Positions 19,218 to 23,692 of a stretch of DNA of 28,898 nt are shown here, piece by piece (within the stretch, counting starts at the first letter, position 1; each line of letters starts with the position of its first letter). The DNA lies in the NCBI GenBank assembly GCA_031459535.1, contig JAVKIJ010000038.1, positions 1-28,898 on the forward strand. The letters are read 5' to 3'. The position numbers and the translations under genes are program-made. The notes under the pieces are model-generated. The model searched no databases and was not told the DNA's origin. It saw only the letters and a list, made by a program, of their open reading frames with translations. Source of the stretch: Candidatus Fervidifonticultor quintus. Its GTDB lineage: Bacteria; Sysuimicrobiota; Sysuimicrobiia; Sysuimicrobiales; Humicultoraceae.

Positions 19218-19246
19218 TTGCTGTCCGCAGCAGGCCGGCGTATCGT
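19218..19246 (+). promoter_or_regulatory. sigma70-type promoter of the riboswitch leader
   Basis: TTGCTG, 17 bp spacer, TATCGT, about 24 nt upstream of the aptamer. Confidence 0.6.
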
Positions 19247-19269: not shown

Positions 19270-19407
19270 GCAGCCTTTCGGGGCAGGGTGAGGCGCGTAG
19301 GGGCGCGCCAATTCCCGATCGGCGGTTACAGCCCGTGAGGCCCTATAGGGCCGTGGCCCGGTGGAATTCCGGGGTCGACGGTACAGTCCGTATGAGGTGG
19401 AGGCTGC
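19270..19407 (+). ncRNA. FMN riboswitch (RFN element), atypical
   Basis: P1 GCAGCCTT/GAGGCTGC. Conserved TTCGGGGCAGGGTG...AATTCCCGATCGGCGGT..AGCCCGTGA, CCGGTGGAATTCCGG and CGACGGTACAGTCCG..ATGAG. Confidence 0.9.
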
Positions 19408-19433
19408 CAGGTTCCGGCGCGTTCAGCCGGCCC

Positions 19434-19473
19434 CCAGGGGACGCCCGATTCGGGCGTCTTTGACTTCTCCTGG
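19434..19473 (+). terminator. Riboswitch expression-platform hairpin
   Basis: GACGCCCG-ATT-CGGGCGTC followed by TTTGACTT. An outer CCAGGGG/CTCCTGG pairing abuts SD GGAGG (19475-19479). Confidence 0.6.
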
Positions 19474-19485
19474 TGGAGGTGGTTC

Positions 19486-20616
19486 ATGTCCCGCTTCGCC
19501 CTCGCCATCCCTGTCCTGTTCGTCGTGTTCGCCTTCTGGAATGGCCCGGCGGCGTCGCAGGCCGCGCTGGAAGACCGCCTGGTCGTGCTCACGCCGATCC
19601 CTCGTGAAGTCTCTGATCCGGTCTCGGAACGATTTGCTGAATACACCCGGCGGCGCTTCGGCGCCACGGTGCGGGTCACGATGATCTCAGCCGGCGCGCC
19701 CCTGGCGTACGCGCGCATCATCGAGTGGCGCGGACGGCCCGAGGCCGACCTCATGTGGGCCGGCGAGGCGGAACTGTTCGATGACCTGGCGGAGAAGCGC
19801 CTGCTGGCACCCCACGAATTGCCGGACGCGGTGACCCGGGAGATCCCCGCCGCGATTGGAGAGCCCCGCAGCCTGCCGCTCCGCGACCCGAGGGGATTCT
19901 GGATCGGCACCGCGCTCACGTCGGCCGGTATCATCTATCACCCGGGCCTGCTGCGCCGATTGGGCCTGCCCGCGCCCGCCGACTGGGACGACCTCACCGA
20001 CTGTCGGTTCAAGGGACAGATCGCGCAGACCACGCCCGACCGATCGGGGTCCCACCATTCGTCTCTTGAGGTCATCCTCCAGCTCAAGGGCTGGCAAAAG
20101 GGGTGGGAGTGGGCGCAGCGGGTCGGCGCCAACACCGGCGTCTTCCTCGCGCGCAGCCGCGACGTGCCCACCTTCGTCGCCCGGGGTGAGTTCGCGGTGG
20201 GGTTCGGGGTGCTGTCGTACATGGCGTTTCAGGACGTGCTCGGAGGCCACGATCTGCGGTTCGTGAGCCCGCCCTACGCGTGGTTCACCCCGGCGCCGTC
20301 GGCCGTCGTCGCCGGTGCGCGCTCGCCCCGCGCGGCCCGGGCGTTCCTGGAGTTTCTCCTGAGCGAGGAGGGCCAGCGCACCGTAATGGCCCAGGGGCTC
20401 TTTCCCATCGTGCCCCGGTTCAAGATGGAGGGACCTCCGGGCTCGCCGGCGCACCGCGCGGCGCTCTTCAGCGGGATGCGCTCGTTTTACGACCGACCGG
20501 TCAAGAGCGTCTACGACGATGCGCTCAGCCAGCGCCGGTACAGCGAAGTGAACGAAGTCTTCCGCTCGCTGATCACCGAGCGCCACGACCAGTTGAAGCG
20601 GCTGCACTGTCCATAG
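19486..20616 (+). CDS. ABC solute-binding protein, AfuA/FbpA/ThiB-like class
   Basis: Signal peptide, PEADLMWAG, P..WDDL, PDRSGS, VARGEFAVG and AARAFLEFLLSEEGQ. Confidence 0.88.
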   Translation: MSRFALAIPVLFVVFAFWNGPAASQAALEDRLVVLTPIPREVSDPVSERFAEYTRRRFGATVRVTMISAGAPLAYARIIEWRGRPEADLMWAGEAELFDDLAEKRLLAPHELPDAVTREIPAAIGEPRSLPLRDPRGFWIGTALTSAGIIYHPGLLRRLGLPAPADWDDLTDCRFKGQIAQTTPDRSGSHHSSLEVILQLKGWQKGWEWAQRVGANTGVFLARSRDVPTFVARGEFAVGFGVLSYMAFQDVLGGHDLRFVSPPYAWFTPAPSAVVAGARSPRAARAFLEFLLSEEGQRTVMAQGLFPIVPRFKMEGPPGSPAHRAALFSGMRSFYDRPVKSVYDDALSQRRYSEVNEVFRSLITERHDQLKRLHCP

Positions 20617-20693
20617 GCGCGGCCGCAGCGACCGCCACCGACAGCCGTCTGGACAGAGGAGAATCGCCGACTATAATGAATTCCGGAACTGCC

Positions 20694-20769
<76 letters not shown>

Positions 20770-20804
20770 GCCACGCTCGTGATAAGCCTTGACAAGTGGA
20801 AAGA

Positions 20805-20832
20805 GCGAAGAGTCCCTCTGAGGGGTCTTCGC
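20805..20832. terminator. Hairpin downstream of tRNA-Lys, possible terminator
   Basis: GCGAAGA..CCCT-CTG-AGGG.TCTTCGC. A short pyrimidine tail (TCTTT) is present only on the minus strand. Confidence 0.4.
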
Positions 20833-21145
20833 CACGGGACCCGCACCCCCGAGCGTGTAGAGTTCGATCAGCACCTGCTGCACACTGCTGTTGGATTGCC
20901 ACGCGGCCCAAGCCGCCATGTCGGCGAACGCCCAGGTTGTCACGTGCCGGCCCGTACCAGCGCTCATGAAATGCAAGACGCCCTGGCCCGTCAGGAAAGG
21001 GCGAGGGCGTAGGTATAGGGCCAGACCGAAGCGGGCTCTGCCCCATGCAGGAGAATCGTGGAGCGCCGCAGTGGCTCCGCACGGGGGTGTTCCCGTGCCC
21101 TGCTGGAGCGGGACACCCCTCATTCGTGGCAAAGGGGATGATCTC

Positions 21146-21526
21146 ATGAAGCTCAGTGCCTTCTTGAGCATCAAGGCCGTCATGTGCTTCGTGTTCGGAA
21201 TCCCCATGCTCCTCGCCCCGATGGGAGTGATGTCGTTGTTCGGCGTCGCGCTCGACCCGCCGGGGGCCTTGATGACGCGCTTCTTTGGCGTTGTCCTGAT
21301 CGCGGTCGGCCTGATCTGCTGGTTTCTCAGGGAGGCCGCAGAATCCGTGACCCGGCGAGATGTCCTTCTCGCGCTGTTCGTCGGCGATACCCTCGGCTTC
21401 ATCGTGGCGCTGGCCGGTCAGCGCGCCGGCCTGATGAACCCGCTCGGGTGGGTTGTGGTCGCCATCTGGCTCCTGCTGGCGCTGGGGTTGGGATACTTCC
21501 GGTTCCTGCGGCCCGCCGCTGCCTGA
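21146..21526 (+). CDS. Small 4-TM membrane protein of unknown function
   Basis: 126 aa with four hydrophobic segments. ATG after AAAGGGG. Confidence 0.8.
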   Translation: MKLSAFLSIKAVMCFVFGIPMLLAPMGVMSLFGVALDPPGALMTRFFGVVLIAVGLICWFLREAAESVTRRDVLLALFVGDTLGFIVALAGQRAGLMNPLGWVVVAIWLLLALGLGYFRFLRPAAA

Positions 21527-21637
21527 GCAGCACGGGCCCGGGCCCCCACACGCCCGGGGGCTGAGGGATCGTAGACAGAACCCCCGGGAAATCCTAGAAT
21601 GACTCGGGACAAAGGAGTCAGTGCGACTGCACCCTCC

Positions 21638-21724
21638 GCGGGCGTAGCCGAACTGGTATAGGCGCCAGACTTAGGATCTGGTCGGCGCGAGCCGGTGGGG
21701 GTTCGAGTCCCTCCGCCCGCACCA
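21638..21724 (+). tRNA. tRNA-Leu(TAG)
   Basis: GCGGGCG/CGCCCGC acceptor stem, CCAGA-CTTAGGA-TCTGG, long variable arm, CCA. Promoter TAGACA-17-TAGAAT (21572-21600). Confidence 0.97.
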
Positions 21725-21759
21725 CAGTGGATTCCGCACCGCTGACCGGGAGGTCCTTG

Positions 21760-23016
21760 ATGAAGGTGGAGTGGAGGCGGGAGCCGCCCAGCCGGGCGGT
21801 TCTCGAGGTCGAGATTCCGGCCGAGGAGGTGGCCCGCGAGGTCCAGAGCGCGGCGTCCAGGCTCTCCCGCCGGTACCGCGTCCCGGGGTTCCGTCCGGGC
21901 CGGGCGCCCCGTGCCCTCCTCGAACGGTACGTGGGCCGCGATGAGCTCTACAGCGAGGCCGCCGAGACCCTGGTGAGCGCCGCCTACCGGCGGGCCATCA
22001 TCGAGGCGGGCGTGCTCCCCGTCGGCCGGCCCGAGTTCGACGTCCCGCCCCTGGACGAGGCGAAGCCGTTGAGATTCGTGGCCAGGGTGGATGTCTCGCC
22101 CGAGGTGGACCCGGGGCGGTACGATGAAGTCAGGATCCCGTACGAGCCGCCGGTGGTGACCGACGCCGAGGTCGACGAGGCGATCGAGGATCTGCGGCGG
22201 CGTCGCGGCAAACTGGTCTCGGTGCCGGGAGAGCGCGCCGGCCGGGGTGATTTTGTGTTGATCAGGCCCACGGCGGTGGAAGGGCTCGATCGCTTCCACG
22301 TAGGTCGAGAGGTCCTGGTGGAGGTCGGCGGGGGCGTGGTGCCTCCGGAGCTCGAGCAGGCGCTGGAGGGTGCCGCAGGCGGCGATGAACGGGCGATCAC
22401 GGTGGGAGAGGCCGGACGGCTCGTGGCGACCGTGGTGGACGTAAAGCGTCGGGAAATGCCGGCGCTCGATGATGCGTTTGCCAGATCGCTGGGCGACGCC
22501 TCCACCGTGGAGGAACTCCGGGCAAAGGTGCGGCAGCGGCTCGAGGCGGACGCCGAAGCCCGGGCCCGCGAGGCTTACGAGGAGAAGGTGCTGGGGGCCG
22601 TGCTGGACGGCGCCTCGGTGGAACTGCCGGCGAGCATGGTGGAGCACGAGGTGGAGCATCTGATCGAGGACCTGGCCGGGTCGCTCCAGCGCCGAGGCTA
22701 CACGCTCGAGCGCTATCTGGAAAGTGCGGGGAAGGATCTCCCCGCGCTGCGCGAAGAGTTTCGGCCACGGGCCGAGCGCCGCCTGCGCGCCAGGTTGGTC
22801 CTGGACGCGATCGCGGACCGCGAGGGCCTTGCCCCTACGGGGGAGGAGATCGCTGCGGAGGAAGAGAAAGTGGCGGCCGACCTGAAGCAAGACCTCGCGC
22901 GGGTCAGGGAGTGGCTGGACGGCGAAGGCCGGCGGCAGGCGATGATCGCCGCACTCCGCCGCCGGAAGACCGTGGCCATGCTGGTGTCGCGGGCGCGGGC
23001 CCCGGCGACCGCCTGA
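21760..23016 (+). CDS. tig: Trigger factor
   Basis: [10 protein letters not shown] ribosome-binding signature, [14 protein letters not shown]. tRNA-Leu-tig-clpP-clpX synteny. Confidence 0.93.
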
Positions 23017-23086
23017 GGGACGAACCGAGCCGACCCCAAGGCGGTCAATACCTTTGGTGGATGGGAATGGACGCGAGGTGAAGACC

Positions 23087-23692
23087 ATGACGCTGATTCC
23101 GATGGTCGTGGAACAGACGGCGCGGGGGGAGAGGGCCTATGACATCTACTCGCGCCTCCTGAAAGACCGGATTGTCTTCCTGGGTGGTCCAATTGACGAC
23201 GACGTGGCCAACCTGGTCATCGCGCAGCTCCTGCATCTGGAGGGTGAGGATCCGGACAAGGATATCATGCTGTATGTCAACAGCCCGGGCGGTGACCTGA
23301 TCGCCTCACTGGCCATCTACGATACCATGCAGTACGTGCGCCCGGACATCGCCACGATCTGCGTGGGGCTGGCCGCCAGCGGCGGCGCCCTGGTGCTGGC
23401 CGGCGGCACCCGGGGCAAGCGGTCGGCGCTACCGTACTCCCGCATCATGATCCACCAACCGTGGGGGGGCGCCCAGGGGACCACTGCCGACATCGAGATC
23501 CAGGCCAGGGAGTTTCTCCAGATGCGTGCCTTGATGAACGAGATCCTGGCCCGGCACACCGGCCAGCCGCTCGAGCGCATCGAACGCGATACCGATCGGA
23601 ATTTCTGGATGAGTGCCGAGCAGGCGAAGGAGTATGGCCTCATTGACGAGGTCATCCGGCCTCGGGAGCATGCCAGGCCCAAGGCCGGGTAG
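23087..23692 (+). CDS. clpP: Clp protease proteolytic subunit
   Basis: [33 protein letters not shown] and YGLID. Confidence 0.97.

Follow-up and report, generated by a model that had tools for sequence, protein, structure and literature searches.

A variant of the FMN riboswitch fold before an orphan solute-binding protein gene: a candidate vitamin B6-dedicated subclass

What is a flavin riboswitch fold doing in front of a lone gene for a solute-binding protein (SBP), and which vitamin do the RNA and the protein serve? The question is posed by a 28,898-nucleotide (nt) stretch of DNA, contig JAVKIJ010000038.1 of Candidatus Fervidifonticultor quintus, which was analyzed whole and is called the window here. 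In it an aptamer of the RFN fold, that of the flavin mononucleotide (FMN) riboswitches (Rfam RF00050), stands upstream of an SBP gene. Handles beginning with G, C, L and f are our own, for genomes, contigs, loci and families; the genome that holds the window is G000. The two features in question are as follows.

19270 to 19407, plus strand: variant-class RFN-fold aptamer with helices P1 to P6, found as a match to RF00050
19486 to 20616, plus strand: gene for an orphan periplasmic SBP of 376 amino acids, of the clade that we call type A, a candidate receptor for vitamin B6 or pyridoxal 5'-phosphate (PLP)

Our answer, held with moderate confidence, is that the leader is an RFN-fold off-switch of a subclass dedicated to vitamin B6 and that it controls a receptor for a B6 vitamer. 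Its parts differ in strength. That the SBP serves B6 rather than flavin appears probable, and we regard it as an even call whether the ligand of the RNA would itself be a B6 vitamer, PLP or another phosphorylated form.

Is the aptamer an FMN riboswitch like any other? Infernal cmscan matched it to RF00050 from end to end (model positions 1-138 of 138) with 65.7 bits and an E value of 9.5e-15. The gathering threshold of the family, 66.2 bits, is not reached, and a scan at the default threshold leaves the window aptamer unlisted because it falls 0.5 bit short. The SBP leaders were aligned with the other RFN elements of the same genomes, and 55 variant and 34 canonical unique sequences were compared. 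Junction J6/1 reads UAUGAGG in 49 of the 55 variant sequences and GAUGGGA or GAUGGAA in 33 of the 34 canonical ones, J5/6 is GU in 48/55 versus GC in 34/34, and the pair that closes P3 is G.U in 51/55 versus G-C in 28/34. J4/5 is GUGG in 42/55 variant sequences, whereas canonical J4/5 ends in GA, the A of which is a G in the variant. The window aptamer has UAUGAGG in J6/1 (19391-19397), UGG in J4/5, GU in J5/6 and a G.U pair closing P3. At position 98, the first nucleotide of J6/1 (this and all further crystal numbering is by our own mapping), U is found in 55/55 variant and G in 34/34 canonical sequences; G98 lies on the ring side of the FMN pocket (PMC7573352). The phosphate-side guanines G10, G11, G32, G62 and G84 are kept in the variant, as are the ring contacts A48, A85 and A99. 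Phosphate guanines that are kept together with a G98 that is changed would fit a phosphate-bearing ligand with a different ring. RNAalifold predicted P1 to P6 for 50 variant sequences; of the 41 predicted pairs, 20 carry compensatory changes, and covariation is seen in P1, P2 and P4. Variant members score about 59-73 bits against RF00050, and canonical copies with short P3 and P4 in the same genomes score 72-119 bits.

In families f5 and f2, canonical FMN riboswitches (L104, L105, L107-L109, L112-L115, L117-L119 and L121) carry large insertions of up to ~70 nt in P3, P4 or the P5 loop. Because of these insertions they score 42-65 bits, below the gathering threshold; they still precede ribD or RibU-like genes.

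Which genes, then, lie behind each class? We surveyed 61 related genomes, all of them metagenome-assembled. The variant precedes the type-A SBP gene in 16/16 genomes that have that SBP, G000 included. In seven genomes it precedes pdxS-pdxT (G006, G014, G016, G027 and G030 of family f1; G049 and G052 of family f2), and in six (G034, G040, G043, G049, G052 and G058) a gene for an energy-coupling factor (ECF) S-component of family PF07155 together with an AIRS/ThiL-like gene. The canonical class stands before ribD or a PF12822 RibU-like S-component gene in all 11 cases examined, and no variant was found before rib or RibU-like genes among the genome leaders examined. One genome, G049, holds three arrangements together: a canonical leader before a RibU-like gene, a variant before the PF07155 gene and another variant before pdxST.

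We also scanned metagenome contigs blind to their genes, using a 21-nt variant signature made up of J5/6, P6 and the start of J6/1. The scan returned 50 loci, all of which contain the aptamer by an nhmmer profile. A PF07155-like gene lies downstream at 28 of them, followed by an AIRS-like gene where the sequence allows; 13 have pdxS, then pdxT where the sequence allows; five have the type-A SBP gene, and two have too little downstream DNA. Counted by vitamin, 47/50 loci are linked to B6 and 0/50 to flavin, and a ribD or RibU-like gene stands behind the variant at none of the 50. Features outside the 21-nt pattern (the P3 closing pair, J4/5 and the J5/6 dinucleotide) co-vary with it, and the reversed pattern, used as a control, has no occurrence in 94 genomes of the phylum.

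Two single loci among the 50 are worth recording on their own. At L164 (riboswitch at 1234-1390) all that remains of pdxS behind an intact variant is a truncated remnant, its first 22 codons with a stop after them; here the riboswitch has outlived pdxS. At L159 (minus strand, ~120-315 of the reverse complement) the variant precedes a 64-amino-acid predicted membrane open reading frame (ORF) with no match to the query proteins used.

How closely is the PF07155 gene tied to B6? The sole match of its protein in the PDB is 4hzu_S, which we take to be the HmpT/PdxU2 chain. HmpT/PdxU2 has been reported as a pyridoxamine transporter (PMC4860826, in its available text). The available part of a further source (PMC9997740) gives only three characterized prokaryotic B6 transporters: PdxU and PdxU2/HmpT, both PF07155, and P5PA, which is PF13531. 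In 8/8 genomes of family f5, a PF07155 gene is found ~1.1-1.2 kb from pdxS and on its strand, without the variant RNA (e.g., G048:C4:21814-23980 and G060:C5:107484-109708), and PF07155 is therefore tied to B6 independently of the riboswitch. The AIRS/ThiL-like gene follows the PF07155 gene behind the variant in 6/6 genomes checked (L106:792-1673 in G058, L110, L111, L116, L120 and L122) and at 25/28 metagenome loci (among L133-L182), the other three either ending first or giving no match. The best NCBIfam matches of its product are HypE, ThiL and SelD, all far below cut-off, and the gene is a candidate for an unrecognized B6 vitamer kinase. A 65%-identical AIRS-like copy lies in G000 (C110:8735-9616, minus strand) in an unrelated context with uninformative neighbors.

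Can the organism make either vitamin? G000 has only two RFN matches, and the second is a canonical element of 89 bits before ribD-ribE-ribBA-ribH (C48:13705-13851). A check for riboflavin biosynthesis genes, suggested in a preliminary description of the locus, thus found them behind the canonical class, and G000 makes riboflavin, since these genes are present. For B6 the picture is one of absences, which in G000 itself are provisional because the genome is 88.85% complete; pdxA and pdxH were not found in it. The gene pdxS is found in 0/6 genomes of the genus, in 6/33 other genomes of the family and in 25/61 overall, and pdxJ in 0/61; the genus-wide absence of pdxS is harder to dismiss than the absences in G000. 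Neither de novo PLP route was found in 36/61 genomes. Among the 16 genomes with the type-A SBP, 15 are without pdxS, and G030 alone has both. G000 has a single full-length gene of the Phos_pyr_kin (ThiD/PdxK) family (C74:10843-12567; L183), next to a ThiL-like gene. The Phos_pyr_kin gene looks like ThiD, and no obvious pyridoxal kinase was seen in G000.

These results bear directly on the explanation that the preliminary description had favored, namely that an ordinary FMN riboswitch controls a new flavin-binding SBP, for FMN, riboflavin or a precursor, whose translocator is encoded elsewhere. The fold of the RNA is that of RFN, nearly every known target of RFN elements serves to make or transport flavins (available text of PMC4418817 and PMC6298564), and an orphan SBP under RFN control has a precedent in the monocistronic RFN-ribY arrangement of Deinococci (PMC4418817, in part); in the protein, the anion-anchor loop is kept and type A gains the cleft aromatics Y264 and W266 relative to its paralog. 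Yet the variant is found only before B6 supply genes and never before rib or RibU-like genes, neither at the 50 metagenome loci nor in the genomes examined, its leader signature is common to pdxST and PdxU/HmpT-like genes, and the flavin transporters of sister genomes stand behind the canonical class. The organism makes riboflavin, whereas no known PLP route was found in it: pdxS, pdxJ, pdxA and pdxH all went undetected in G000. Finally, Pfam finds no match between the SBP and the families of known flavin SBPs. On this evidence the flavin assignment has lost most of its ground, and we consider it quite improbable.

Is the pairing of RNA and SBP gene conserved? Every SBP match of at least 66% identity has an RFN element ahead of it, at a distance of 60-135 nt and in the same orientation; this holds in 16/16 genomes from four genera, or in 15/15 when G022, whose SBP match is cut by a contig end, is left out. 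Matches of type B (59-65% identity) have an RFN nearby in 0/25. A maximum-likelihood tree unites the 16 SBPs that have the riboswitch in a single clade (support 85/81), sister to 19 SBPs without a riboswitch (support 91/97), so that the search upstream of SBP homologs proposed in the preliminary description traced the riboswitch through one whole clade. The type-A gene is solitary at all 12 orthologous loci inspected, and its neighbors vary by genus (upstream VWA, MFS or CUT1-type permease genes; downstream tRNA, tig, Memo, ROK or NHL). We considered that the SBP gene might have replaced pdxST in place and rejected the idea: riboswitch-pdxST loci share none of the window neighbors searched (BatA, BatB, tig, ClpP, ClpX, Lon and others).

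What kind of protein is the SBP? It has a signal-like N-terminal segment and matches Pfam families PF13531 (top), PF13343, PF01547 and PF13416; its best NCBIfam match, to 2-aminoethylphosphonate SBPs, is weak. By sequence its nearest solved relatives (PDB search, E about 2e-17) are AfuA (4r72), VcA0625 (8x1a) and P5PA (6wce). An AlphaFold model built with 117 homologs (predicted local distance difference test score 91.7) has as its best fold matches VcA0625 and AfuA, which bind glucose-6-phosphate, and P5PA, which binds PLP (template modeling scores 0.67-0.83, ~20% identity). Sequence and fold thus bear out the earlier assignment to the AfuA class, in the sense of an AfuA/P5PA structural class. 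In sequence alignments the SBP largely retains the phosphate anchor that P5PA and AfuA share (G70, S187, G/A188, S/T189 and S224), and type A differs from the non-riboswitch paralog at ring-side positions 142, 143, 147, 243, 244, 264, 266, 270 and 307. Judged by its residues, the SBP belongs to neither characterized group, because the sugar motif of AfuA is absent and the ring ligands of P5PA are not kept. It plausibly still anchors a phosphate, and the kept anchor is the reason for which PLP is favored as its ligand.

A protein of this kind could also bind some other organophosphate or anion, or have a role outside transport, the riboswitch link being a lineage-specific accident. Its 62%-identical paralog belongs to an ATP-binding cassette (ABC) operon that also encodes a HAD-IIA phosphatase and a glycerophosphodiesterase, the weak NCBIfam match is to phosphonate binders, and neither G004 nor G015 yielded a translocator that could be assigned. 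Against this, the RNA-SBP pair is kept in all 16 genomes and four genera despite changing neighbors, the riboswitch-bearing SBPs are one clade, and both other targets of the variant RNA are B6 genes; we rate this explanation as highly improbable. We read the SBP as a B6 uptake receptor instead because the only genes found behind the variant come from three unrelated families, those of the B6 synthase, of an ECF component of B6 type and of a P5PA-family SBP, because flavin genes use the canonical class, and because 15 of the 16 genomes go without pdxS.

A receptor of this type would need a translocator, and no permease or ATPase gene adjoins the SBP gene at the locus. The sole close paralog of the SBP in G000 (62% identity, C73:29448-30584) heads an ABC operon (C73:29448-36433; L012:3448-10433) that consists of the SBP gene, DinB on the opposite strand, a truncated SBP copy, an ATPase, a fused two-domain permease, the HAD-IIA phosphatase and the glycerophosphodiesterase. 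The truncated C-terminal copy (C73:31250-31957) is 65% identical to the window SBP and looks like the remnant of a tandem duplication. The order SBP-ATPase-permease-HAD recurs in other genomes. As the operon of a close paralog with an order that recurs elsewhere, the C73 system supplies the best candidate partner of the orphan SBP in its ATPase and permease. Among the matches checked, the seven other fused permeases of G000 near SBP-search matches each pair with a distant SBP paralog. Sharing of transporter parts has a precedent in P5PAB, which borrows the ATPase AfuC (PMC8427247, in its available text). The suggestion of the preliminary description that the ligand may be phosphorylated and its translocator encoded elsewhere remains reasonable.

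How would the leader act on the gene? The SBP ORF starts 78 bases downstream of the end of the aptamer match, and the leader holds four further features.

19218 to 19246, plus strand: promoter-like site with -35 box TTGCTG (19218-19223), a 17-nt spacer and -10 box TATCGT (19241-19246)
19414 to 19430, plus strand: small hairpin CCGGCGCGUUCAGCCGG in the interval from P1 to the terminator-like hairpin, from minimum free energy (MFE) folding
19437 to 19467, plus strand: terminator-like hairpin of GACGCCCG (19440-19447), loop AUU and CGGGCGUC (19451-19458), with U-rich tail UUUGACUU
19464 to 19482, plus strand: possible anti-Shine-Dalgarno (anti-SD) sequence CUUCUCC (19464-19470) pairing with the SD sequence GGAGG (19475-19479), from local folding

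The promoter named in the preliminary description is upheld in one respect and not in another: orthologous leaders keep a TTGC.. box and a TATGCT/TATGGT/TATCGT box in position upstream of the aptamer, but the site at 19218-19246 is below the threshold of a simple promoter scanner and is not called by it. The G+C-rich terminator-like hairpin with its U-tract is conserved before SBP, pdxS and PF07155 genes in the variant leaders printed through that region; a terminator scanner made no call at 19437-19467, where the U-rich tail is too weak. A GGCGC motif is conserved at the place of the small hairpin among related leaders. The 3' strand of P1, GGUGGAGG (19396-19403), is identical in sequence to the SD region, which suggests that the two compete for the CUUCUCC anti-SD. 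The SD-masking hairpin is not conserved outside the genus.

In the mechanism that we propose, the secreted cluster-D SBP would capture a B6 vitamer, most likely PLP, which a translocator encoded elsewhere would import and which would supply a host without detected genes for de novo PLP synthesis. The effector of the RNA would more likely be a phosphorylated B6 vitamer (PLP) than FMN. When it is plentiful, P1 would close, the hairpin and U-tract would act, in the genus perhaps together with the SD-masking hairpin, and the gene would be turned off. The off direction is predicted by analogy, as is a level of control that may be transcription, translation or both. The variant class would have arisen from an FMN aptamer that kept its phosphate pocket and remodeled the ring side.

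Several observations weigh against the B6-dedicated reading. On the RNA side, no antiterminator was found by MFE folding, and the terminator-like hairpin forms with P1 allowed or blocked. The metagenome loci were selected by part of the signature and are probably kin rather than independent cases, and the exact signature occurs in 34/94 genomes of the phylum, from two families (17/33 in f1 plus G000; 16/22 in f2). In G008 (C4:82815-82916; L044) the aptamer has lost its 5' half, ~80 nt from the 5' strand of P1 to P4, and the SBP gene is intact; this deletion, in which the -10 box now abuts the P4-P5 region, is a natural loss of regulation. On the side of physiology, PF07155-like genes not preceded by the riboswitch occur in many of the genomes that have the type-A SBP, and both that SBP and pdxS are missing from 13 genomes of the family. 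The SBP is only ~20% identical to P5PA and lacks its His203 (Ser244) and Gln267 (Pro307). G004 (96% complete) and G015 (93% complete) have the riboswitch-SBP pair, and neither a C73-type permease nor the type-B SBP was found in them; the three fused-permease systems found in G004 each have their own SBP. Lastly, the available text of PMC6298564 lists as FMN contacts G10, G11, G32, A48, G62, G84, A85 and A99, plus position 12, and all nine are unchanged in the variant, because of which FMN binding may be retained.

This last point is at the heart of a further explanation, in which the variant still senses FMN and FMN status governs the B6 supply genes, including a B6-binding SBP. Such cross-vitamin control has a rationale: salvage of B6 through pyridoxine 5'-phosphate/pyridoxamine 5'-phosphate oxidase needs FMN, so that low FMN would call for direct synthesis or uptake of PLP. 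The intact contacts speak for it, as do Rfam scores near or above the family cut-off (60-73 bits), and an RFN element before yaaDE (pdxST) in Thermaerobacter marianensis has been described as an FMN riboswitch whose role there is not obvious (PMC4418817, in its available text). On the other hand, pdxH was not found in G000, so that the FMN-dependent step is not evident there, and genomes of the G049 type have both B6 synthesis and B6 uptake behind the variant, so that FMN repletion would stop their whole B6 supply. Another explanation would be needed for the differences that are fixed between the variant and the canonical class of the same cell, among them the ring-side change of G98 to U (PMC7573352). 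Genes of this kind would normally be under feedback by a B6 vitamer, whereas it would make no regulatory sense for FMN to repress the only B6 sources. We therefore judge cross-vitamin control unlikely, and keep the B6-dedicated subclass as our reading.

The surroundings of the locus include a tRNA gene with a promoter-like site of its own.

20650 to 20677, plus strand: promoter-like site of tRNA-Lys (TGGACA, 16 nt, TATAAT), from a promoter scan
20694 to 20769, plus strand: tRNA-Lys (CTT)

This site is strong (11/12 matches versus a shuffle mean of 0.1) and makes tRNA-Lys a separate transcription unit. All the parts that the preliminary description had listed are thus present, from the RFN aptamer and hairpin through the SBP gene to a tRNA, without a permease or ATPase gene. 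Upstream of the SBP locus lie BatA/BatB-like VWA genes, and downstream tRNA-Leu and the housekeeping genes tig, clpX and lon, with a clpP-sized ORF, identified by size alone, between tig and clpX. Two long minus-strand ORFs, 20728-21402 and 21418-23088, have no Pfam match. The first sits between the two tRNA genes, and the second is probably a GC-rich shadow ORF, since it overlaps the trigger-factor gene on the plus strand.

What would the B6-dedicated reading mean if true? To our knowledge, PLP is one of the few universal coenzymes without a described natural riboswitch, and no B6 or PLP riboswitch came to light in a literature search, with most subscription journals and supplements outside its scope, which on FMN riboswitches and vitamin B6 gave nothing relevant beyond a 2015 survey (PMC4418817). 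The RNA would then be a natural riboswitch for PLP or another phosphorylated B6 vitamer, and its regulon (pdxST, the PdxU/HmpT-like ECF component with its ThiL-like gene, and the SBP) would define a new family of B6-binding proteins and possibly a new B6 kinase. Little is known of how bacteria take up B6, and the SBP clade would be a fourth kind beside the three characterized B6 transporters (PMC9997740, in part), in the uncultured phylum CSP1-3/Sysuimicrobiota, and the puzzle of an "FMN riboswitch" before pdxST would be explained. The locus offers a short, defined RNA with a clean comparative signature and an internal control in the canonical FMN class of the same genomes. That 36 of the 61 genomes are without a detected de novo PLP route bears on vitamin cross-feeding and on attempts at cultivation.

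How do the protein and the RNA compare with known systems? The known flavin SBPs, RfuA (BMP type) and RibY (NMT1/ThiY type), belong to families to which the window SBP has no Pfam match, and the 2015 survey of RFN-regulated genes, in its available text and supplements aside, lists no SBP of the window family (PMC4418817). AfuA (4R72-4R75; PMC4546632, in part) is the best PDB sequence match and has the same fold with an anion site at helix N termini that is partly kept, but its sugar motif H205-D206-E229 corresponds to S244, Y245 and T268 in the window SBP (S268 in 15/16 type-A proteins), and no AfuBC genes are adjacent. P5PA of Actinobacillus pleuropneumoniae (6WCE) shares the cluster-D fold, PF13531 and the anchor, in which G36 equals G70, S147-G148-T149 equals S187-G/A188-S/T189 and S183 equals S224. 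It differs at the T37 position (71, which is G, S or A in type A), at His203 (Ser244) and Gln267 (Pro307), and its Tyr103 aligns ambiguously, with W139 or the loop 142-144; its gene adjoins that of its permease (P5PAB), whereas the window SBP gene stands alone. According to the available text of the same source, homologs of P5PA are reported only in Pasteurellaceae (PMC8427247).

For the RNA, the nearest precedents are subtypes 1 and 2 of the variant FMN riboswitches, which Atilho, Perkins and Breaker (2019; PMC6298564, in its available text) described in Clostridioides difficile and Atopobium. Like the window class, they are an RFN subclass with fixed changes in the core and genes of its own, found beside true FMN riboswitches. 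Unlike it, they turn phosphate- and ribityl-contacting guanines to adenines and reject FMN, subtype 2 binding riboflavin, lumiflavin or lumichrome, and they control efflux pumps (norM, emrB) or COG3601 genes, whereas the window class keeps the guanines and has B6 targets; the available text of that paper, supplements aside, does not mention pdx genes. The Thermaerobacter marianensis element before yaaDE is a single case, for which the available text describes no subclass signature (Gutierrez-Preciado et al. 2015; PMC4418817). With the FMN riboswitch itself (RF00050; Fusobacterium nucleatum structure 3F2Q) the variant shares the six-helix architecture, the sequences of J1/2, J2/3 and P6, the listed FMN contacts and an off-switch layout with hairpin and U-tract after P1. 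It departs from it in U98, in UGG in place of aGA in J4/5, in UAUGAGG in place of GAUGggA in J6/1, in the G.U pair that closes P3, in scores around or below the curated cut-off, and in having B6 genes and never flavin genes downstream. Set against these systems, the locus is a candidate for a subclass of the FMN riboswitch fold that is dedicated to B6 and has not been described before, together with a new candidate family of B6-binding proteins.

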